Below, piece by piece: positions 26,065 through 37,261 of a stretch of DNA of 64,000 bases; positions within the stretch are counted from its first letter, which is position 1; each line of letters opens with the position of its first letter. The DNA is from a plasmid: sequence record NZ_LR134454.1; one strand, 5' to 3'. The translations under genes and the position numbers were made by a program. The notes under the pieces were generated by a model. It saw only the letters and a program-made list of their open reading frames with translations. It made no database searches and had not been told where the DNA came from.

Positions 26065-28167
26065 ATGCGTGCTGCCACCCTGCCCACGAACACCGCGCCC
26101 GTCGGAGGCACCCCGTTCAGCTGGAGCCGGACGGGGGTGATCACCCAGGCGCTGGCCGCGACCGTCCTCGCCGGCTCGCTGACGCTCACCGCCATGCCCT
26201 CGTCGAGCTTCCAGCTGCCGTCCCCCGCGCAGGTGCTCGCCGTGCCCGCGGCGGCGGCCCCACTGCGCATGGACGTGCAGATGACGAGCATCATCGACCT
26301 GCTGCCTCCAGGGGCGATCGCGGCGATGCTGGAGGACACCAGCTCGCAGAAGCTCGCCGACGCGATGGCACTGACGAATCCGGCGAAGGTCGCCGACATC
26401 ATGTCGCGCATGGACCCGGCCAAGACCGCCAAGATCCTCGAGGCGATGCCCGCCGACAAGGTCGTCGCGATCATGAACCTGATGGACGAGAAGAAGCTGA
26501 CGGCCATCGTCAACGGCCTGCCGCAGAACAAGCTCAACACCATCGTCGCGGGCCTGTCCCAGGACAAGCTCAACGCGGTGGTCAAGGCGATCCCCGAGGC
26601 CAAGCTCATCGAGGTGGTCAAGAGCCTCGACGACGCCACCCTCGGCAAGATCGTCGGCGCGCTGCCGACGGATCGCCTCGTCACCATCGTCTCCGGCCTC
26701 GATCAGCAGAAGCTCAAGGACCTCGTCGGGGGCATTCCCGCCGACGTCCTCGGCCCCGTGGTCGGAAGCCTCCCGGACGACAAGCTGGCGGCACTCGTCG
26801 GGCAGATCCCCGTCGACAAGCTGGGCGCGGTCGTCGCGACCCTCCCGCCCGCGACCATCGCCAAGCTGGTCGAGGGCCTGCCGACGTCCGTGCTGACCGA
26901 GGTGATCGGCACCGTCGACCCCGCGAAGATCGGTCCCGCCGTCGCCGGTCTGTCGAACGACAAGCTCGCCGCCCTGGTCGGCTACATTCCGACCGACAAG
27001 CTGGCCGCCGTGGTCTCGGGCTTCGACGAGAAGAAGCTGGGCGAGATCGTCGGCCTCATCCCGGTCGAGAAGCTCGGCCCCGTGGTCGCCGGCCTGCCCG
27101 CCGACAAGCTGACCGCACTGGTCAAGCAGATCCCCGTCGAGAAGCTCATCACCGTGGTCTCGGGCCTCGACGACAAGACCCTCAGCGAGCTGGTCAACGG
27201 CATCCCGGTCGAGAAGCTCGGCCCGATCGTCGCGGGCCTGCCGACCGAGAAGCTCATCCAGCTGGTCGGATCCATCGACTCCGAGAAGCTCAAGGCGATC
27301 GTCGGCGGCCTGCCCGACGACAAGCTGCTCGACATCATGGACGGCCAGCTCATCGGCCGCGTGGTCTCGCTGGTCGTCGCGAGCCTCGGCACCCCGGGCG
27401 GCATCGCCAAGCTGCCCGACCTGCTCACCGGCGTCGTCAGCGGCGCCGTCTCGGGCGGCGCGCAGCTCGTGCCGAACCTCGTCGCGAACATCCCGCTGGT
27501 CGGCCCGGTCATCGCCGGACCGATCCAGCTGGTCACGAACGCCGTGGTGGTGCCCGCGGTGAACCTCGGCCTGAGCCTGCTGCAGCCGGTGTTCTCGCTG
27601 ATCGCCACCGTCGTCTCGCTGCCGGTCTCTCTGGCGACGTCGGTCATCGGAGGCGGCGGCCTGACGGACCTGTTCGGTGAGGTGACGAAGGGGCTCGCGG
27701 GTCTCGCCGGAACCGACGCCGCGAAGTCCCTCGACGTCGCCGCGAAGTCGCTCACCGCCGACGCGAAGCCGGAGGCGGCATCGCTGCTCGCGACCGCGGC
27801 CGCGCCCGCTGCGGAGGACGAGGCCGCCGCAGCCGGCGCCGCCGAGAAGGCGAAGGACGCCGAGACCGCCTACGTCGGCAAGCACCGCGCCGACGACAGC
27901 GAGGCGGCCGATCCGGTGACCGTCGCGCCGACGACGGCCGAGCCGACCGACGCCGCCCCGGCGACGGAATCCGCTCCGGAGACCGTCACGGAGGCCGCTC
28001 CCGCGACCGAGGACGCCCCTGAGGACGCCCCCGAGGAGGAGGCGGCCCCCGCTGAGACGCCGGCCGCCGCGGAGACCGCCGCTCCGGCACCCGCCGAGGA
28101 GACGGCGGACGCTGCGGACGCTGCCGCCGCCGACGAGGACGCGTCCACCACTGCCGACGCCGCCTGA
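26065..28167 (+). CDS. 700-aa protein with 29 contiguous 12-residue repeats (helical solenoid-like, MgtE-N/FliG-type repeat flavour), a Gly/Val-rich hydrophobic segment and an acidic Ala/Glu/Pro/Thr-rich tail
   Basis: Residues 81-428 split into 29 units of exactly 12 aa with no indels (for example LPTDKLAAVVSG, IPVEKLGPVVAG, LPADKLTALVKQ). RBS aggagag. N-terminal signal/TM-like stretch AATVLAGSLTLTAMP. Confidence 0.6.
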   Translation: MRAATLPTNTAPVGGTPFSWSRTGVITQALAATVLAGSLTLTAMPSSSFQLPSPAQVLAVPAAAAPLRMDVQMTSIIDLLPPGAIAAMLEDTSSQKLADAMALTNPAKVADIMSRMDPAKTAKILEAMPADKVVAIMNLMDEKKLTAIVNGLPQNKLNTIVAGLSQDKLNAVVKAIPEAKLIEVVKSLDDATLGKIVGALPTDRLVTIVSGLDQQKLKDLVGGIPADVLGPVVGSLPDDKLAALVGQIPVDKLGAVVATLPPATIAKLVEGLPTSVLTEVIGTVDPAKIGPAVAGLSNDKLAALVGYIPTDKLAAVVSGFDEKKLGEIVGLIPVEKLGPVVAGLPADKLTALVKQIPVEKLITVVSGLDDKTLSELVNGIPVEKLGPIVAGLPTEKLIQLVGSIDSEKLKAIVGGLPDDKLLDIMDGQLIGRVVSLVVASLGTPGGIAKLPDLLTGVVSGAVSGGAQLVPNLVANIPLVGPVIAGPIQLVTNAVVVPAVNLGLSLLQPVFSLIATVVSLPVSLATSVIGGGGLTDLFGEVTKGLAGLAGTDAAKSLDVAAKSLTADAKPEAASLLATAAAPAAEDEAAAAGAAEKAKDAETAYVGKHRADDSEAADPVTVAPTTAEPTDAAPATESAPETVTEAAPATEDAPEDAPEEEAAPAETPAAAETAAPAPAEETADAADAAAADEDASTTADAA
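26305..27348 (+). repeat. In-frame 36-bp tandem repeat array (29 copies) encoding the dodecapeptide repeats
   Basis: The recurring ...gacaagctg...gtcgtcg..ggcctgcc... period is visible across the array and sits inside the CDS. It is not a CRISPR array: there are no unique spacers and it is coding. Confidence 0.8.
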
Positions 28168-28176
28168 CACCCCACT

Positions 28177-28214
28177 CTCCGGCCCCCTCCGCGCACCCGC
28201 GGCGGGGGCCGGAG
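28177..28214. terminator. GC-rich hairpin between the convergent repeat-protein gene and the methyltransferase gene
   Basis: ctccggccccc-N16-gggggccggag. Confidence 0.5.
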
Positions 28215-28238
28215 CCGTGTGCGACACCGTCGGGCCGG

Positions 28239-29003
28239 TCAGCGCTTGCGGAAGACCAGGACCAGGTTCGACACGAGCAGCTCCCGCAGGCCCGGGACGC
28301 GGACCATCCACCACGCCCACGACGGGTGGTAGCGCGGGAACGCCGCGACGAGCTCCGCGCCGTCGACGGTGGCGGCCCAGCCCAGCCCGTCCGCCGCGCC
28401 CACCTTGAACAGCGACGTGCCGTAGAGGTTCTTCGGCGGGTGCCCGTGTTTACGCGTGTACATCCGGGCGGCGCGCTCGCCGCCGAGGTAGTGGGTCAGT
28501 CCCATCTCGTGCCCGCCGAACGGGCCGTACCAGAGGGTGTAGCTCAGGATCACCATGCCGCCCGGGCGGGTGACGCGCAGCATCTCCTCGCCCATGGCCC
28601 GCCAGTCGCGCACGTGCTCGGCGACGTTGGACGAGAGGCAGACGTCGACGGCACCGTCGGCGATGGGGAGCGCCAGGCCCGAGCCCCGCAGGCCCCGCGA
28701 CGACGTGATGCCGGCGGCGTGCGCCTCCGACGCGTCGGGCTCGACGGGCACGTAGACGGCGCCGTGCTCGGCGAAGGCGTCCTCGAAGTAGCCGGGCCCG
28801 CCGCCGACGTCGAGGACGAGGGCGCCGTCGAGGTCCCCGAACAGGTCGCCGGTCAGCTCGACGGTGTCGCGGGCCAGCGAGCCGTAGAAGCGCGCGGGCT
28901 CGGACTGCTCGAACCGGAAGTCGGACAGCAGCCCGACCGAGCGGCGCAGGGTGGCGCGCCGCCGCAGCCGTGCCGTCGCGTTCTTCCAGGTAGAGGGGTA
29001 CAC
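28239..29003 (-). CDS. Class I SAM-dependent methyltransferase (Rv0224c-like)
   Basis: LDVGGGPGYF SAM motif. Start placed at GTG 29003, giving 254 aa; the table ORF extends to 29063 and would overlap the divergent GT gene. Confidence 0.8.
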   Translation of the reverse strand: MYPSTWKNATARLRRRATLRRSVGLLSDFRFEQSEPARFYGSLARDTVELTGDLFGDLDGALVLDVGGGPGYFEDAFAEHGAVYVPVEPDASEAHAAGITSSRGLRGSGLALPIADGAVDVCLSSNVAEHVRDWRAMGEEMLRVTRPGGMVILSYTLWYGPFGGHEMGLTHYLGGERAARMYTRKHGHPPKNLYGTSLFKVGAADGLGWAATVDGAELVAAFPRYHPSWAWWMVRVPGLRELLVSNLVLVFRKR

Positions 29004-29028
29004 GTGACCGGACGGTACCCTAGAACGC

Positions 29029-30171
29029 GTGCGTGAAGTCCTCCTGCTGTGTTGGCGTGACACCCGCCACCCTCAGGGCGGCGGCAGCGAGCTGTACCTC
29101 GAGCGCGTCGGCGAGGAGCTGGCCGCCCGCGGGGTGCGCGTCACGCTGCGGACCGCGATGTACCCCGGCGCGGCCCGGTCCGAGACCGTGCGCGGCGTGC
29201 ACCTCTCCCGCGGTGGCGGCCGCTTCACCGTCTACCCCCTGGCGCTGATCGCCATCCTCCTCGCACGGTTCGGGCGCGGTCCGCTGCGCGGGATCCGCCC
29301 CGACGCGGTGATCGACACCCAGAACGGCATCCCGTTCTTCGCGCGGCTCGTCGCGGGCGTGCCCGTGACGGTGCTCGTGCACCACTGCCATCGCGAGCAG
29401 TGGCCCGTCGCGGGACGCCTCGTGGCGCGGATCGGCTGGTTCATCGAGTCGCGGCTCTCGCCGTGGCTGCACCGGCGCTCCCAGTACCTCACCGTCTCGC
29501 TGCCCTCGGCGGAGGAGCTGGCGCTGCTCGGCGTCGGCGCGGAGCGGGTGGCCGTGGTGCGCAACGGGATCGATGCGGTGGCCCCGGGCGTCGCGGACGT
29601 GCGGTCCGCGTCGCCGCGCATCGTCGTGCTCTCGCGGCTCGTGCCGCACAAGCAGATCGAGGACGCCCTCGACGTGCTCGCCCGCCTGGGCCGTCGCGTC
29701 CCCGACCTGCACCTCGACGTCATCGGCAGCGGCTGGTGGGACTCCGAGCTGTACGCGCACGCCGCGAAGCTCGGCGTCCTCGACCGCGTGACCTTCCACG
29801 GCCACGTCACCGAGCAGCGCAAGCACCGGCTGCTCTCCCGCGCGTGGGTGCACGTCATGCCGTCGCGCAAGGAGGGCTGGGGCATCACGGTGATCGAGGC
29901 GGCCCAGCACGCGGTGCCGACCGTCGGGTACGTCTCGTCGCGCGGGCTCACCGACTCCGTGGTCGACGGTGCCACCGGGCTGCTGGTCCGCGACCTCGCA
30001 GGCCTCACCGAATCGGTGTACACGCTGCTGAGTGACGCTCTGCTGCGGGAGGAGCTCGGCGCGAAGGCGCAGGAGCGGGCGGGGGAGTTCTCCTGGCCCG
30101 CCACCGCCGACGGCGTCTCCCGCGTCCTGGCCGCGTCCGTCGCCGGGGAGCGCGTCGGCGGGCTCGTCTGA
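29029..30171 (+). CDS. GT4-family glycosyltransferase (Rv0225-like)
   Basis: GT-B fold with the EGWGITVIEAAQHAVPTVGY (E-x7-E region) motif; 380 aa. Confidence 0.85.
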   Translation: MREVLLLCWRDTRHPQGGGSELYLERVGEELAARGVRVTLRTAMYPGAARSETVRGVHLSRGGGRFTVYPLALIAILLARFGRGPLRGIRPDAVIDTQNGIPFFARLVAGVPVTVLVHHCHREQWPVAGRLVARIGWFIESRLSPWLHRRSQYLTVSLPSAEELALLGVGAERVAVVRNGIDAVAPGVADVRSASPRIVVLSRLVPHKQIEDALDVLARLGRRVPDLHLDVIGSGWWDSELYAHAAKLGVLDRVTFHGHVTEQRKHRLLSRAWVHVMPSRKEGWGITVIEAAQHAVPTVGYVSSRGLTDSVVDGATGLLVRDLAGLTESVYTLLSDALLREELGAKAQERAGEFSWPATADGVSRVLAASVAGERVGGLV

Positions 30172-30230
30172 CCGCTGGGGCCGGCCGGGCTGCTCGGTCT
30201 TCGGCGACGCCGAGCCCGGCGGGACGGCGT

Positions 30231-30269
30231 GCGGTGGATTCTTGCCGCTGGGCGGGCACTATCCACCGC
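30231..30269. promoter_or_regulatory. Inverted repeat gcggtggat-N21-atccaccgc downstream of the GT gene and upstream of the signalling operon
   Basis: Read in the sequence. Followed by direct and inverted copies of gagcttcgg (30316, 30339, 30369). Confidence 0.25.
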
Positions 30270-30416
30270 ACGTCGTCGACCGCGGCGGGCGTGCCCCGGC
30301 ATCGAGCCTCGCCGCGAGCTTCGGTGGGAATCTGCGGCGGAGCTTCGGCGTGTCGTCGACGAATCGCACCGAAGCTCGACGGCGCCCCGACCGGTATCCG
30401 TTACCGTGAATACGTG

Positions 30417-30608
30417 ATGAGGCAACGTGAGGTGCCGCGGATAGCGTGGATGATGATGCTGTTCAGCGGACTGCTGGGGGCTGCGACGATGCTCCTCGTG
30501 GACTGGGCGCTGTGGCCGAGCTTTCGGACCGTCCTTGCCGTCTGCATGATCGCGGGCTACGTGATCGTCGCGGCGGTGGGTGCGGTGGGCCTCGTGAGGT
30601 CCCGGTGA
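30417..30608 (+). CDS. Small membrane protein (63 aa, 2 TM)
   Basis: MRQREVPRIAWMMMLFSGLLGAATMLLVDWALWPSFRTVLAVCMIAGYVIVAAVGAVGLVRSR. Stop overlaps the next start (ATGA). Confidence 0.4.
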   Translation: MRQREVPRIAWMMMLFSGLLGAATMLLVDWALWPSFRTVLAVCMIAGYVIVAAVGAVGLVRSR

Positions 30609-31243
30609 TGAGCCGCTCCCCTGTGGTGCGGACGGTGCCGGTCGCGGTGCTCAAGGCGTTCGCCGGGGTGCTGTTTCTGCTGTGGCTCGCGCTGTTCGCG
30701 GCGTTCGTTCTGCTCGATTGGCCGTTCGACGGCCCGCCGAGTCAGCGGATCGCGCACGGCTTGTTGCTCGCAATCGGCCTGACCCTGGCGACGGTGGCGG
30801 GCCAGCTGTGGCGGACCGCGATCGGGATGGAGCCCGTGACGAGTGTCGGCGACGCCCGCTACATGCTGGGCGGCATCGCGCTCCTCATCCCGGCGATGGC
30901 GCTTCTGTGGATGGACTACGGCGCGTGGGCGTCGTGGCGCATCGCAGCAGTCGTCGTGCTCTTTGCGGCGATGTTCGTGCTGGTCGTCCTCAACTTCCGC
31001 GACCGGCGGCGGCACAAGGGCGAGATCGCGGCGCCGGTCGCGGCGATGACGGTGCGAACCGCCCGCGGCGACCGGGAGGTGCGCATCGCGCAGCCGGAGG
31101 GCTTGCCCGACCGGTGGATCACGCACTGGTCGATCGACGGCGCCCCACAGGGCACGATCCACCGCGTCTCGTACGGACCCGACCCGATGCGTTCGCTCAC
31201 AGCTGCACTCGCCGACGCGGAGGCCGCGGTCGCCGTAATCTGA
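30608..31243 (+). CDS. Membrane protein (211 aa, about 4 TM plus a C-terminal soluble tail)
   Basis: Hydrophobic segments VAVLKAFAGVLFLLWLALFAAFVLL, LLLAIGLTLATVAG, MLGGIALLIPAMALLW and IAAVVVLFAAMFVLVVL. The next gene starts 5 nt later. Confidence 0.5.
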   Translation: MSRSPVVRTVPVAVLKAFAGVLFLLWLALFAAFVLLDWPFDGPPSQRIAHGLLLAIGLTLATVAGQLWRTAIGMEPVTSVGDARYMLGGIALLIPAMALLWMDYGAWASWRIAAVVVLFAAMFVLVVLNFRDRRRHKGEIAAPVAAMTVRTARGDREVRIAQPEGLPDRWITHWSIDGAPQGTIHRVSYGPDPMRSLTAALADAEAAVAVI

Positions 31244-31247
31244 AACG

Positions 31248-32923
31248 GTGGCTGAAACTTCAGGGCGGCGCCCTGCGATTCTGACCGTCGACGACGATCC
31301 GAGCGTGTCCCGCGCGGTGGCGCGGGATCTGCGGCGCAAGTACGGCGACGAGTACCGCATCGTCCGCGCGGAGAGCGGCGAACAGGCGCTGGAGGCGCTC
31401 AAGGAGCTCAAGCTCCGCGGCGACCTGGTGGCCGCGATCCTCGCCGATTACCGCATGCCGCAGATGACGGGCCTCGAATTCCTCGAGGCCGCGATGGACG
31501 TCTACCCGGGCGCCCGGCGGCTGCTGCTCACCGCGTACGCGGACACGGGCGCCGCGATCGAGGCGATCAACGTGGTCGACCTCGACCACTACCTCCTCAA
31601 GCCCTGGGACCCGCCGGAGGAGAAGCTCTACCCCGTCATCGACGCGCAGCTGGAGGCCTGGCTCTGCAGCGACCACCGGCCCGTGCCGGAGACGAAGGTC
31701 GTCGGGCACCGCTGGTCGGCCCGCTCGTCGGAGGTTCGGGAGTTCCTGGCCCGCAACCAGATCCCGTACCGCTGGTACACCGCCGAGTCGCCCGAGGGGC
31801 AGCGCCTCCTCGCCGCCGCGGGCAGCGACGGCCAGCAGCTCCCGCTCGTCGCCGCGGCCGACGGGACCGCGCTGTGCGCACCGTCGGACAGCGAACTGGC
31901 GGCCCACGTGGGCCTGAACACCACCCCGTCGGAGGAGTTCTACGACCTGGTCGTCGTCGGCGCGGGCCCGGCCGGGCTCGGCGCCGCCGTGTACGGCGCG
32001 TCCGAGGGGCTGCGGACGGTGCTCGTCGAGCGGTCCGCGACCGGCGGGCAGGCGGGGCAGAGCTCGCGCATCGAGAACTACCTGGGCTTCCCCGACGGGG
32101 TCTCGGGCACCCAGCTCACCGACCGGGCGCGGCGGCAGGCGACCAAGTTCGGCGCCGAGATGATCACCGCCGCCGACGTCGTCGAGCTCGAGGTGACGGG
32201 CTCCGGCCGGCGGGTGCGGTTCTCCGACGGCACCGTCGTGGGGGCGCACACCGTCATCCTCGCGACGGGCGTCGCGTACCGGCAGCTGGACGCGCCGGGC
32301 ATGGCGCGGCTCACGGGCGCCGGGATCTTCTACGGCTCGGCGATGACCGAGGCGCCGGCCTGCGCCGGCCAGGACGTCTACATCGTCGGCGGCGCCAACT
32401 CCGCGGGCCAGGCCGCGGCGTACCTGTCGAAGGGCGCGCGCTCGGTGACCCTGCTGGTGCGGGGGCCGTCGCTCGAGGCGTCGATGTCGTATTACCTCAT
32501 CCAGCAGCTGAACGCGATCGAGAACGTGCACGTGCGGCCGCACACCCAGGTGGTCGAGGCGCACGGCGACGACCACCTCACACAGCTCACCCTGCGGGAC
32601 ACCGAGTCGGGCGCGACGGAGCAGGTCCCGGCGGACTTCCTGTTCGTCTTCATCGGCGCCGAACCGCGCACGGACTGGCTCGACGGCGTCGTCGCGCGGG
32701 ACGGGCGGGGCTTCCTGCTGACGGGCCCGGATCTCGCGCTCGACGGTGCCGCGCCCCGGGGATGGGAATTGGACCGGCCGCCGTTCCACCTGGAGTCGAG
32801 CGTCCCCGGCATCTTCGTCGCCGGCGACGTCCGGTCCGAATCGGCGAAGCGCGTCGCCTCCGCGGTGGGCGAGGGCGCGATGGCCGTCATGTTCGTCCAC
32901 CGCTATCTGGAAGGAGTCGACTC

Positions 32924-32927
<4 letters not shown>
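31248..32927 (+). CDS. Fusion protein: N-terminal response-regulator receiver (REC) domain plus thioredoxin-reductase-like FAD/NAD(P) oxidoreductase domain
   Basis: REC: ILTVDDDPSVSRAV...ILADYRMPQMTGLEF...LLTAYAD, with phospho-acceptor Asp in ADYRMP. TrxR fold: DLVVVGAGPAGLGAAVYG, ATGGQAGQ, VYIVGGANSAGQAA and GIFVAGDV. The expected CxxC redox motif is absent (GSAMTEAPACAG in its place). GTG start. Confidence 0.8.
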
Positions 32928-34404
<1,477 letters not shown>

Positions 34405-34408
<4 letters not shown>

Positions 34409-34755
34409 GCGAACCGACCGACCCGATCGATCCGACGGTGCCGCCCAGCGGCGCCGGGTGCGTGGAGTGCGACGCCGCCGGCGGCTGGTGGGTGCACCTG
34501 CGCCGCTGCGCGAAGTGCGGCCACATCGGCTGCTGCGACTCCTCGCCGTCGCAGCACGCGAGCGCCCACGCCCGCGCGAGCGGCCATCCCATCGTGCAGA
34601 GCTTCGAGCCCGGCGAGGCCTGGTTCTGGGACTACGTCTCCGAGGACTACTACGACGGTCCGCTGCTCGCCGACCCGCAGAACCGGCCCGTCGACCAGGC
34701 CGTGCCCGGCCCCGCGGGACGCGTGCCCGCCGACTGGCGGAACCACGTGCACTGA
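34405..34755 (+). CDS. UBP-type zinc-finger (zf-UBP) domain protein, 116 aa
   Basis: [44 protein letters not shown] matches the zf-UBP Cys/His pattern. ATGA overlap with the kinase stop. Confidence 0.7.
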
Positions 34756-34823
34756 GCCCGAGTCCTCGTCGGCCCGATCAATGCGAGGATGGCAATAGTC
34801 GTATCCGGACCAGGAGGAGAACC

Positions 34824-35909
34824 GTGCCGCAGACCGTCAGAGGAATCGTCGCCCGCGCGAAGGGCGAGCCCGTCGAAGTGGTCCCGATCGTGATCCCCGA
34901 TCCCGGCCCCGGTGAGGTGGTGGTCGCGGTGCAGGCGTGCGGCGTCTGCCACACCGACCTGCACTACCGCGAGGGCGGCATCAACGACGAGTTCCCCTTC
35001 CTGCTCGGCCACGAGGCCGCCGGCGTGGTCGAAACCGTCGGTGAGGGAGTCGATCACGTCGTGCCCGGCGACTTCGTCGTGCTCAACTGGCGCGCCGTGT
35101 GCGGCCAGTGCCGCGCCTGCAAGCGCGGCAAGCCGCAGTACTGCTTCGACACCTTCAACGCCACGCAGAAGATGACCCTCGAGGACGGCACCGAGCTCTC
35201 GCCCGCTCTCGGCATCGGCGCCTTCGCGGAGAAGACCCTGGTCCACCAGGGGCAGTGCACCAAGGTCGATCCCGAGGCCGACCCCGCCGTCGTGGGCCTC
35301 CTCGGCTGCGGCGTCATGGCCGGCCTCGGCGCCGCCGTGAACACCGGCGGCGTCTCGCGCGGTGACACGGTGGCCGTGATCGGTTGCGGCGGTGTGGGAG
35401 ACGCGGCCATCGCGGGCGCCCGCCTCGTCGGCGCGCGCACCATCATCGCCGTCGACCGCGACCCGAAGAAGCTGGAGTGGGCGCGCGAGCTCGGCGCCAC
35501 GCACACCGTCAACGCGGCGGAAAGCGATGCGGTGGATGCGATCCAGGAGCTCACCGACGGTTTCGGCGCCGACGTCGTGATCGACGCCGTCGGCCGCCCC
35601 GAGACGTGGAAGCAGGCCTTCTACGCCCGCGACCTGGCAGGCACCGTCGTGCTGGTGGGCGTGCCGACCCCCGACCTGACCCTCGACATGCCGCTCATCG
35701 ACTTCTTCTCGCGCGGTGGGGCTCTCAAGTCGTCGTGGTACGGCGACTGCCTGCCCGAGCGGGACTTCCCGCAGCTCGTCGACCTGTACCGCCAGGGCCG
35801 CCTGCCGCTGGAGAAGTTCGTCACCGAGCGGATCGGCCTCGACGAGGTGGAGCAGGCCTTCGCGACCATGCACCGCGGCGAGGTGCTGCGCTCGGTGGTG
35901 GTCCTGTGA
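34824..35909 (+). CDS. mscR: Mycothiol-dependent formaldehyde dehydrogenase / S-nitrosomycothiol reductase (class III Zn-ADH)
   Basis: [23 protein letters not shown] (structural Zn) and [13 protein letters not shown] (NAD fold). Collinear with the M. tuberculosis Rv2259 product as I recall it. RBS aggagga. Confidence 0.85.
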
Positions 35910-36532
35910 CGCTGCGCGTCGAACGCGTCATCACGTCGGGCACCTTCAGCCTCGACGGCGGCACCTGGGACGTCGACAACAACGTCTGGCTGGTCGGCGA
36001 CGACAGCGAGGTGGTGGTGATCGACGCCGCCCACTCCGCCGACCCGATCGTCGACGCCGTCGGCGGGCGGACCGTGCGCGGAATCGTCTGCACCCATGGG
36101 CACAACGATCACGTGACCGTCGCGCCGGAGCTGTCCGAGCGGCTCGACGCGCCGATCCTGCTGCACCCCGGCGACGACGTCCTGTGGGACATGACCCATC
36201 CGGGCGTCGGGCACGAGGATCTCGCCGCCGACAGCCGGATCGCCGTCGGCGGCACCGAGATCCGCGTGATCCACGCGCCCGGCCACTCGCCGGGGTCGGT
36301 GTGCCTGTACCTGCCCGAGGCCGGGCAGCTGTTCAGCGGCGACACCCTGTTCGCCGGCGGGCCCGGTGCGACCGGCCGCTCGTACAGCGACTTCTCCGTG
36401 ATCATCGAGTCCATCCGGGACCGGCTGTTCGCGCTGCCGCCGGAGACGGTCGTGAACACCGGGCACGGCGACGGCACCACGCTGGGCGCGGAATCCCCGC
36501 ACCTGGAGGAATGGATCCGTCGGGGCCACTGA
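35906..36532 (+). CDS. MBL-fold metallo-hydrolase (Rv2260-like partner of mscR)
   Basis: THGHNDH metal-binding motif and [12 protein letters not shown] start overlaps the mscR stop. Confidence 0.8.
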
Positions 36533-36556
36533 TCCCCGCCCGAATCGGAACCCGGG

Positions 36557-37261
36557 TTGTATCTTCTTTGCATGACCAGGGTGCAGATGGGGCCGCGGGC
36601 GAGCAGGTGGTGGATCGCCTACCTGCTCGTCTTCGGCGCCGCGCTCCTCGGGGCCGTGATGGACCGGCGCTGGGGCAGCGCCGCACTCGTCGCGGCGATC
36701 CTCGTGGCCGGCCTCGTCACGACGGCCGGGTCGTTGCTGCTCCAGCTCGCGGTGCACGTGGTGGCCTGCGCGTTCGCCGCGCTCTCCGCCGAGATCGCCT
36801 TCGCCGGCGGTGACCTGTTCTGGGGCGCCTTCGGCGTGCTGGCCGCCCTCGTGCTGGGCGCGCTCGTCCCGCTCGCGCTCCGCGAGGGCTCGGGTGGCCG
36901 GATCCGCACCGAGGAGCTCGTCGGCCGCACCGTGCCGGAGGCCGAGCGGCTGCTCGGCTACCCGCGCGACCGCCAGCCCGGCGGTCTCGGCGCCCCGGTC
37001 CTCGTCGCCGTCCCCTACGGTCCGCTGCCCGACGGTGCCGACCGTCGCGCCCGTCTCGTGGTGACCGCGGTGGCCGTCGACCCGGCCGGCCCGTGGATCG
37101 CCTTCGGGGTCACCCCCGCCGCCTATGCGCCCGCCTTCGACCGGCGCCGACGACGGGCGCTGCAGGCAGAGCTGCACGCCCGCGTCGGCGGCTTCCCCGC
37201 CGACCTCCGGCAGGACCGCACCGTCGCGCCGGTGCCGGCGGCGGCCGCTACGCCGAGATGA
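36557..37261 (+). CDS. Hypothetical membrane protein
   Basis: Several Ala/Leu-rich TM segments (WIAYLLVFGAALLGAV, LVAAILVAGLVTTAGSLLLQLAV). No conserved motif recognised. Confidence 0.35.
   Translation: MYLLCMTRVQMGPRASRWWIAYLLVFGAALLGAVMDRRWGSAALVAAILVAGLVTTAGSLLLQLAVHVVACAFAALSAEIAFAGGDLFWGAFGVLAALVLGALVPLALREGSGGRIRTEELVGRTVPEAERLLGYPRDRQPGGLGAPVLVAVPYGPLPDGADRRARLVVTAVAVDPAGPWIAFGVTPAAYAPAFDRRRRRALQAELHARVGGFPADLRQDRTVAPVPAAAATPR

Follow-up and report, generated by a model that had tools for sequence, protein, structure and literature searches.

What might a response regulator do with a thioredoxin reductase (TrxR)-like flavoprotein as its output when that flavoprotein no longer possesses the cysteine pair of a thioredoxin reductase? 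The question is raised by a gene in a 64,000-nucleotide stretch of plasmid DNA (sequence record NZ_LR134454.1; this whole stretch is called the window), which has a high GC content of about 70-77% and whose best protein matches come from Tsukamurella. The gene encodes a 559-aa protein, 96% identical to a Tsukamurella 'FAD-dependent oxidoreductase' (FAD, flavin adenine dinucleotide), in which a Pfam scan recognizes a receiver (Response_reg, aa 11-123) and a Pyr_redox_2 module (aa 232-543). An initial annotation, made from the sequence of the window alone, had pointed out that the TrxR-like domain of this fusion lacks the redox-active CxxC. The protein has the architecture of a glutaredoxin-TrxR fusion relay, with non-cysteine residues in place of both CxxC motifs. 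It is a flavoprotein of TrxR fold without the CxxC and, at the same time, a response regulator of the kind with an enzymatic output.

Loss of two dithiols from a fused redox relay

There are only three cysteines in the 559-aa protein (C140, C210 and C372), and neither a CxxC nor a CxxxxC occurs anywhere in it. The landmarks quoted in the initial annotation are all found: GGQ at aa 266-268, the second Rossmann motif VYIVGGANSAGQAA at aa 377-390, GDV at aa 526-528, and GSAMTEAPACAG at aa 363-374, the segment that had been placed opposite CATC of TrxB and whose single cysteine is Cys372. In a MAFFT L-INS-i alignment of the query, 120 homologues, and E. coli TrxB and AhpF (from NC_000913.3), S364-A-M-T367 is the counterpart of C136-A-T-C139 in TrxB and of CPHC in AhpF, and phmmer pairwise alignments to the TrxR structures 7jyp, 5uth and 2a87 put the cysteine pair opposite the same four residues, in the same register. 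The position of CATC is indeed without a dithiol. Alignment with TrxB, AhpF and the family homologues, which the initial annotation had proposed as a check, uncovered no hidden CxxC or CxxxxC, and the homologues do not keep the dithiol either.

The loss extends far beyond the window. The S364-T367 site reads [S/A]-A-[L/M]-T in 121/121 sequences that are at least 75% identical to the query. A HMMER search of 1.84 billion cluster representatives (50%-identity clusters) returned 3,808 proteins at E<=1e-30, and no cysteine pair is present at this site in the best 150 of them, with identity down to 36%; the family motif around the lost CxxC in these 150 is G-V-[FY]-Y-G-[AS]-x-x-x-E-A. A scan of one genome per species gave 80 loci (83 genome loci in the later counts) from at least eight phyla, including Streptomyces, Nocardia, Mycolicibacterium, Amycolatopsis, Actinoplanes and others among the Actinomycetota, as well as Chloroflexia, Acidobacteriota, Bacteroidota, Gemmatimonadota, Cyanobacteria, Burkholderiales, Verrucomicrobia and Myxococcota. 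None of the 83 loci has a cysteine pair at the site, and none of the 80 has a cysteine at either the S364 or the T367 position. The stop-to-stop open reading frame (ORF) is free of any CxxC or CxxxxC in 76 of the 83, and the seven sporadic cases sit elsewhere than at this site. On the sequences compared, absence of the dithiol is a family trait, and neither chance, sequencing error nor decay of one copy.

Could the protein be an ordinary thioredoxin reductase with a misaligned CxxC, or a decayed, lineage-specific copy of one? Many databases do name it 'thioredoxin reductase (NADPH)', but it contains no CxxC or CxxxxC, the loss is uniform in hundreds of homologues, which come from many phyla and are under strong purifying selection, and its scores reach neither the TrxB nor the AhpF cut-offs, all of them curated. 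Its best NCBIfam match, TIGR01292 (TrxB), is aligned from end to end (1-300 of 300) with 216.1 bits against a cut-off of 343.45, PRK10262 gives 109 bits (cut-off 644), AhpF TIGR03140 gives 159.7 bits (cut-off 502.9) and the AhpF-homolog model gives 179.5 bits (cut-off 687.65). Both possibilities are ruled out, with virtually no chance left to either. The family-wide loss and these sub-threshold scores bear out the view of the initial annotation that this is not a conventional disulfide reductase, and it is very probable that the flavoprotein is not a dithiol disulfide reductase.

The second lost motif lies in the approximately 80 residues between the receiver and the flavoprotein module, which are without Pfam annotation in the 559-aa protein. 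An AlphaFold2 model built from a 71-sequence alignment (mean predicted local distance difference test score, pLDDT, 93.7; predicted TM-score, pTM, 0.89) folds aa 149-220 into a β-α-β-α-β-β-α thioredoxin fold with pLDDT above 90. A profile of this segment from 35 family members matches the M. tuberculosis glutaredoxin Rv3198.1 (2LQO) with E=2.5e-7, and the Pfam Glutaredoxin model itself matches 12 of the 35. The W-C-G-Y-C of 2LQO is aligned with W-S-x-R-[S/T] of the family, which is S157-A-R-S160 in the 559-aa protein, and TVPTV..DG..NPS is aligned with LPxV..DG..NPS; the cis-Pro equivalent P199 is kept in 74/80 relatives. No locus among the 83 has a cysteine at both glutaredoxin-like active-site positions, where the family has S-x-x-[S/T/A/G]. 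The domain resembles this mycoredoxin-1/glutaredoxin (2LQO) in its fold, in the conserved Trp before the active site and in the [LT]-P-x-V ... D-G ... N-P-S segment, but no thiol chemistry is possible in it because C-G-Y-C has been replaced by S-A-R-S. This is the second lost CxxC of the protein, and it was overlooked in the initial annotation. With both dithiols gone, electron transfer by thiol-disulfide exchange is impossible. The positions of these and the other features are collected in Table 1.

Table 1. Features of the regulator gene and its surroundings, in window positions; aa numbers refer to the 559-aa protein unless another protein is named.
Feature	Position	Strand	Evidence or remark
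Upstream ORF	30446-31243	+	Hydrophobic stretches; ends 4 nt before regulator start
Response regulator / glutaredoxin-like / TrxR-like flavoprotein gene	31248..32927	+	ORF list, translation; GTG start, stop codon included, 559 aa
Receiver (REC) domain, aa 9-125	31272..31622	+	Pfam PF00072 E=2.9e-14
Receiver acidic pocket, D15-D17	31290-31298	+	
Receiver phospho-acceptor, D67	31446-31448	+	
Receiver T95	31530-31532	+	
Receiver K118	31599-31601	+	
Glutaredoxin/mycoredoxin-like thioredoxin-fold domain, aa 148-222	31689..31913	+	AlphaFold2 model, family profile, Pfam
S157-A-R-S160, at expected CxxC site of glutaredoxin-like domain	31716-31727	+	
P199, cis-Pro equivalent of glutaredoxin-like domain	31842-31844	+	
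Low-Mr TrxR-like FAD/NAD(P)H two-domain module, aa 231-556	31938..32915	+	TIGR01292, PDB TrxRs, Foldseek
FAD-binding GxGxxG, G238-A-G-P-A-G243	31959..31976	+	Invariant glycines in family alignment
GGQ, aa 266-268	32043-32051	+	
S364-A-M-T367, aligned with CxxC of TrxB and AhpF	32337..32348	+	Alignments
E368, conserved, aligned with Asp after second Cys of TrxB	32349-32351	+	Alignments
Cys372, only conserved Cys, same helix, i+4 from E368	32361..32363	+	Family alignments
NAD(P)H-binding Rossmann motif VYIVGGANSAGQAA, aa 377-390	32376..32417	+	
V404-R-G-P-S-L-E-A-S-M-S414, in place of TrxB HRRxxxR	32457-32489	+	
GD(V), aa 526-528	32823-32831	+	
Cognate cytoplasmic histidine kinase	32924..34408	+	CAP/cNMP-binding-like sensor domain (cNMP, cyclic nucleotide monophosphate), H-box (THELNNP), HATPase_c
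zf-UBP mini-protein, 116 aa	34405..34755	+	Pfam PF02148 E=1.3e-14
S-(hydroxymethyl)mycothiol dehydrogenase	34812-35909	+	TIGR03451 701 bits, above cut-off; directly downstream
Metallo-β-lactamase (MBL)-fold hydrolase resembling glyoxalase II	35906-36532	+	End overlaps mycothiol dehydrogenase ORF

Cofactor sites and relation to known TrxR-fold families

The sites for the two cofactors have been retained. Among 71 sequences at 35-56% identity, G238, G240, G243, G266-G267-Q268, N277 and G526-D527 of the FAD site are invariant, as are G381 and N384 at the core of the second Rossmann motif and S414; S385-A390, R405 and M413 are at least 90% conserved. The FAD motifs GxGxxG, GGQ, ENY and GD and the NAD(P)H motif made up of G381, N384, SAGQAA and R405 are thus either invariant or at least 90% conserved, and E368 is nearly universal in the family. 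The HRRxxxR of TrxB is reduced to its first Arg, R405, and reads V-R-G-P-S-L-E. With this pattern the second Rossmann motif probably binds a nucleotide, which may be NADH or NADPH.

Structure prediction, another check suggested in the initial annotation, gave a confident TrxR-like model in a conformation like that of the flavin-reducing (FR) state. In Foldseek comparisons the TrxR-like part superposes on FR-state TrxRs with TM 0.90-0.95, the L. lactis enzyme 5mh4 giving a root-mean-square deviation (rmsd) of 1.5 Å and TM 0.95; 3cty, 3r9u and 5usx (with NADP) are further examples. It superposes poorly on identical or similar enzymes in the flavin-oxidizing (FO) state (rmsd 7.7 Å for 5mjk and 6.9-7.0 Å for 5w4c). 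Because the model fits the FR-state and not the FO-state TrxRs, it is the nicotinamide site, rather than the helix of the former CxxC, that is predicted to lie against the flavin.

By sequence the closest solved structures are the low-molecular-weight (low-Mr) TrxRs (7jyp, E=1e-43), followed by AhpF (1fl2, E=7e-36). TrxB provides the best sequence and structure matches and shares the two-domain FAD/NAD(P)H fold from end to end, with GxGxxG, GGQ, GD and the second Rossmann motif; unlike TrxB, the protein has S-A-M-T in place of CxxC, V-R-G in place of HRRxxxR, approximately 14 extra residues before the GD motif, and a receiver and glutaredoxin-like domain fused to its N-terminal side. AhpF and the NTRC-type fusions offer the precedent of a thioredoxin-fold domain covalently joined to a TrxR module, and AhpF is the top full-length Foldseek match (E=4e-31). 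However, AhpF has a CxxC in both its N-terminal domain and its TrxR part, both of which are gone here, and its domains are arranged differently (full-length rmsd 19-29 Å).

Enzymes of TrxR fold that lack the CxxC are already known, namely the TrxR-like FNRs and Bdr, which reduce acceptors other than thioredoxin (PMC10294844). Like the protein described here they have kept the FAD and NAD(P)H sites without the CxxC, and they are the best functional analogy for electron flow from NAD(P)H through FAD to another acceptor (PMC10294844). Might the protein belong to one of these classes? There are weak matches to TrxR-like FNR structures (5xhu, E=2.7e-17; 3ab1, 2zbw and 3lzw; overall E=1e-17 to 1e-11) and to the Bdr/YpdA model TIGR04018 (E=8.5e-19, cut-off 339.9 bits), but these trail at 47-66 bits and 67.5 bits, respectively, whereas TrxR and AhpF are far closer at 216 and 160-180 bits. 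In the TrxR-like FNRs a C-terminal helix lies over the FAD of the other monomer and supplies a stacking His, Val or aromatic residue (PMC10294844). In the 559-aa protein the helix that corresponds to the last one of TrxB (H536-558) closes the chain without a C-terminal extension, and so there is no helix with an FAD-stacking residue. Bdr/YpdA enzymes possess a conserved N-terminal cysteine; with cysteines at 140, 210 and 372 only, there is none in the FAD-binding N-terminal part of the module. The FNR and Bdr classes also lack signalling domains and a fused glutaredoxin-like domain. Membership of either class is rejected for the low scores and the missing stacking helix, and is very improbable. 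Being far closer to TrxB and AhpF than to the FNRs or YpdA, and without the C-terminal stacking helix, the family would have lost its CxxC independently.

As a response regulator with an enzymatic output, the protein corresponds to the 'REC-thioredoxin reductase' of Galperin's censuses, in which a receiver precedes an enzyme-like domain and has a kinase as its partner. The 'REC + thioredoxin reductase' combination is recorded in those response-regulator censuses (PMC5847659), the available part of which gives the domain combination only, with no mention of missing dithiols, a glutaredoxin-like domain, a kinase with a CAP domain or a zf-UBP partner.

The receiver, its kinase and the zf-UBP partner

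Is the receiver still able to receive a signal? It scores 53.6 bits with PF00072 against a cut-off of 30.2, and D15/D16/D17, D67, T95 and K118 are intact, and invariant in close homologues. The GTG start of the kinase gene overlaps the TGA stop of the regulator gene (GTGA) and the ATG start of the zf-UBP gene overlaps the TGA stop of the kinase gene (ATGA), so that the three genes of the window overlap start to stop; the kinase and zf-UBP genes are translationally coupled. A full-length kinase homologue adjoins 44 of the 83 genome loci, across phyla, and contigs of Streptomyces, Acidimicrobiales and Catellatospora also carry the regulator and kinase together. The D-D/E-D-T-K receiver set is present in all 44 kinase-linked loci, with the acidic pair unaligned in one; receiver-like members without a kinase have mostly degenerate sets, e.g., DEDVK, ADDIR, AEAVR and PHEAM. 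Since the receiver residues are intact and the gene of the cognate kinase overlaps the stop codon, the proposal of the initial annotation that receiver phosphorylation switches activity is plausible, and the flavoprotein is probably controlled by phosphorylation from the adjacent kinase.

Some members appear to form an orphan pseudo-receiver subfamily with a degenerate receiver, no adjacent kinase, and Met, Leu or Val in place of Cys372 (loci L048, L049, L051, L063, L065, L068, L069, L071 and L080; representatives P0128-P0270). In sister proteins, a CAP-like domain takes the place of the receiver and is fused directly to the glutaredoxin-like and TrxR-like module. In a 714-aa metagenomic protein (P0125), a receiver and the glutaredoxin-like/TrxR-like module are followed by a C-terminal cNMP domain with a canonical G-E...R-T-A motif, which represents a third way to couple a CAP-type domain to the module. 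The module is always downstream of its input domain, whether receiver or CAP-like, which is the layout of an effector. Neither the sister CAP-like fusions nor the conserved kinase and zf-UBP partners were noticed in the initial annotation.

Among solved structures, the kinase sensor domain (aa 1-150) matches NtcA, a sensor of 2-oxoglutarate, best (E=3e-4); the alignment of the two shows no counterpart of the R-[ST]-A that is canonical in cyclic-nucleotide binders. A pattern search of the fused N-terminal CAP-like domains of the sister flavoproteins did not find the canonical phosphate-binding motif. Because this motif is not found, the ligand of the CAP-like domains, including that of the kinase sensor, may not be a cyclic nucleotide. 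The regulator is more conserved than its partners: between the window and loci L005-L024, L033 and L077, identities are 64-78% for the regulator, 47-61% for the kinase and 59-69% for the zf-UBP protein. The 64-78% range of the regulator spans actinobacterial orders, and identity is approximately 70% even to the Acidimicrobiia versions.

The third gene of the set encodes the zf-UBP mini-protein, in which C19, C22, C35, C38, C43, C44, H51, H55 and H61 are invariant (Cys6His3). A homologue is found within 5 kb at 21 of the 83 loci, mostly as the immediate neighbour and in the same orientation, and it adjoins receiver-type and CAP-like-type members in several phyla. Seen from the other side, the flavoprotein or the kinase is next to zf-UBP in at least 20 of the best 80 metagenomic zf-UBP loci, many of whose contigs are too short to judge. 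The link to zf-UBP is strong but not obligatory. A bacterial zf-UBP homologue has been solved (2IDA, E=1.6e-37) and was deposited as a 'hypothetical protein'. In eukaryotic ZnF-UBP domains, the Arg of the G-C-G-R motif holds the C-terminal carboxylate of ubiquitin; in alignments this Arg falls in a bacterial C-C-D-S-S stretch that has no Arg. Ubiquitin-tail-like binding by the bacterial zf-UBP therefore seems unlikely, the Arg being without a counterpart. Bacterial zf-UBP mini-proteins have been listed just as conserved hypotheticals (PMC2602986).

At 6 of the 80 zf-UBP loci (L092, L097, L108, L110, L119 and L125), zf-UBP is directly followed by Oxidored_molyb, a molybdoenzyme of the sulfite-oxidase family, and an FNR-like reductase (FAD_binding_6/NAD_binding_1), and four of these six have a regulator or kinase upstream. 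These neighbours hint at a redox context for zf-UBP. An apparent FNR-like cluster at 20 zf-UBP loci arose as an artefact when stop-to-stop ORFs were clustered by single linkage, and was discarded; a direct tblastn gives 6/80.

Clustering of the locus ORFs returned no conserved neighbours other than the kinase and zf-UBP. The ORF upstream of the regulator has a weak DUF6968 match (E=4e-5, below cut-off) and is not conserved upstream in the Streptomyces, Acidimicrobiales and Catellatospora loci. Downstream of the zf-UBP gene, the mycothiol dehydrogenase and MBL-fold pair is not found beside the system in the other genera examined. None of the three proteins (regulator, kinase and zf-UBP) matches an anti-phage defence system in PADLOC, no Rfam family occurs in 28000-37000, and promoter and terminator scans gave nothing beyond chance.

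Possible roles of the flavoprotein

How might such a protein work? Its ancestor would have been a fused glutaredoxin/mycoredoxin-TrxR redox relay that lost both dithiols. NAD(P)H would reduce the FAD, and the reduced flavin would pass its electrons directly to a non-disulfide acceptor, which could be a small molecule, O2 or a partner metalloprotein. The leading, if weak, candidate for a metalloprotein acceptor is the co-encoded Cys6His3 zf-UBP mini-protein, which is nonetheless quite unlikely to be a direct electron-transfer partner. The CAP-like domain of the adjacent kinase would sense its ligand, the kinase would phosphorylate D67, and activity would be gated via the receiver and the glutaredoxin-like domain. 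We tentatively prefer this phosphorylation-gated NAD(P)H flavoenzyme with a non-disulfide acceptor, and rate its probability a little short of even; that the flavoprotein is still a turning-over redox enzyme is slightly favoured. The two lost CxxC motifs, the kept cofactor motifs, the fold, the intact receiver and the conserved kinase partner are observed, whereas continued turnover, the nature of the acceptor, and how and in which direction activity is gated are inferred. The 64-78% identity of the regulator against 47-61% for the kinase is what a cofactor-bound enzyme would show, and the order of the domains, in which a receiver or a CAP-like sensor precedes the flavoprotein, is the layout of regulators with enzymatic outputs. 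By analogy with the TrxR-like FNRs and Bdr, CxxC-less TrxR folds can pass electrons to non-disulfide acceptors (PMC10294844).

Several observations weigh against a gated flavoenzyme. The conserved cofactor sites would fit a sensor equally well, and the FR-like geometry is a prediction only. The 2'-phosphate motif HRRxxxR retains just one Arg, and in the clade of the query Ala takes the place of the third glycine of GxGxxA (G-G-A-N-S-A), a position that is Gly in 60/80 relatives. The widely conserved Cys372 is left without explanation. The zf-UBP gene is not found at about three quarters of the family loci, and most zf-UBP genes lie elsewhere. Finally, the metal of zf-UBP is presumably a structural Zn, as in eukaryotic ZnF-UBP domains.

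If the cofactor sites fit a sensor, might the protein be a redox-sensing pseudo-enzyme? This is the principal rival to the gated flavoenzyme. The redox state of the flavin, or occupancy by NAD(P)H or NAD(P)+, would drive the rotation of the NADPH domain known from TrxRs, and the rotation would reposition the glutaredoxin-like and receiver domains, thereby modulating partner binding, phosphotransfer or phosphatase action; the two-component system would receive information from the flavin instead of sending it there. Loss of both catalytic dithiols with retention of the cofactor sites is what such a protein would show, the FO/FR rotation of low-Mr TrxRs is large enough to be a possible switch and both states are among the matched structures, and neighbour clustering disclosed no obvious substrate gene that is universally linked. 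The subfamily with degenerate receivers and no kinase is also reminiscent of pseudo-receiver proteins that work by protein contacts. However, the system would then have two sensors, the CAP-like domain of the kinase and the flavin, but no recognizable output; the N-terminal receiver or CAP-like module sits at the usual input position; and the very high conservation of the whole flavoprotein is no less compatible with catalysis. Flavin or NAD(P)H sensing, one of the two functions put forward in the initial annotation, is a live rival, yet it is not the best-supported reading, and we regard it as possible but fairly unlikely.

The other function put forward was that of a single-thiol enzyme. In this case Cys372, activated by E368, would form a mixed disulfide, sulfenate or persulfide with a substrate or partner, possibly a cysteine of zf-UBP or a mycothiol adduct, as an echo of the mixed-disulfide intermediate of TrxR and thioredoxin. 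Cys372 is invariant in close homologues and present in 60 of the 83 loci, including most CAP-like-type members, and the E368 one turn away is nearly universal. Cys372 is also found in 20 of the 21 zf-UBP-linked loci and in 40 of the 62 others (Fisher p=0.005, not phylogeny-corrected). The two residues before position 372 correspond to the Phe-Phe pair that docks thioredoxin in the E. coli TrxR-thioredoxin complex, which would also favour a thiol role. Against this, Cys372 aligns with an aromatic residue in the classical enzymes, Tyr144 of TrxB (Met1 numbering) and Phe of AhpF, and it is replaceable: the 44 kinase-linked orthologues have Cys in 36, Tyr in 7 and Val in 1, and the 39 kinase-less loci have Cys in 24 and Thr, Met, Val, Ala, Gln, Tyr or Leu in the other 15. 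Replacement of the cysteine by Tyr, Val and other residues suggests that residue 372 occupies a packing position rather than providing a catalytic thiol. Cys372 is, moreover, five residues along the helix from the flavin-proximal Cys position, which is itself Thr or Ser in the kinase-linked type and Met, Ile, Leu or Ala in the CAP-like type; at about 7-8 Å along the helix beyond the flavin-contacting position, direct flavin-thiol chemistry by Cys372 is unlikely. The proposal of a single-thiol enzyme is thus weak, and we consider it improbable, although the subfamilies that keep the cysteine may still make use of its thiol.

A broader reading takes in the zf-UBP protein as a working partner. 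In many phyla the former glutaredoxin-TrxR relay would have become a flavin module, gated by a ligand or by phosphorylation, that operates together with a bacterial zf-UBP metalloprotein. This could take the form of an electron chain from the flavoprotein to the Cys/His mini-protein, or of a 'frozen' mimic of the TrxR-thioredoxin complex in which domain rotation would transmit the NAD(P)H or flavin redox state. We regard this conversion as speculative and, on balance, unlikely. If it were true, two-component systems would gain an output of a new kind, and prokaryotic zf-UBP proteins their first function.

At NCBI most members of the family have been renamed from 'fused response regulator/thioredoxin-disulfide reductase' to 'FAD-dependent oxidoreductase', and the JGI label is still 'thioredoxin reductase (NADPH)'. 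In a full-text literature search, with most subscription journals outside its coverage, no functional study of any family member was found, and nothing on the missing dithiols, the glutaredoxin-like domain, or the kinase or zf-UBP partner. Thousands of database entries thus say 'thioredoxin reductase (NADPH)' for a family that cannot use the TrxR mechanism, a misnaming with consequences for annotation and for all metabolic or redox models in which the family figures as a thioredoxin system. In this family nature offers a clean case of a dithiol relay with non-cysteine residues at both CxxC sites but preserved flavin and nucleotide sites, and the family also provides a genomic lead to the role of the bacterial zf-UBP mini-proteins, of which a structure is available (2IDA). 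It is widespread in soil bacteria such as Streptomyces, Nocardia, Mycolicibacterium and Tsukamurella and unusually conserved, and its dedicated kinase makes for a tractable signalling pathway whose output is a flavoenzyme and not a transcription factor.

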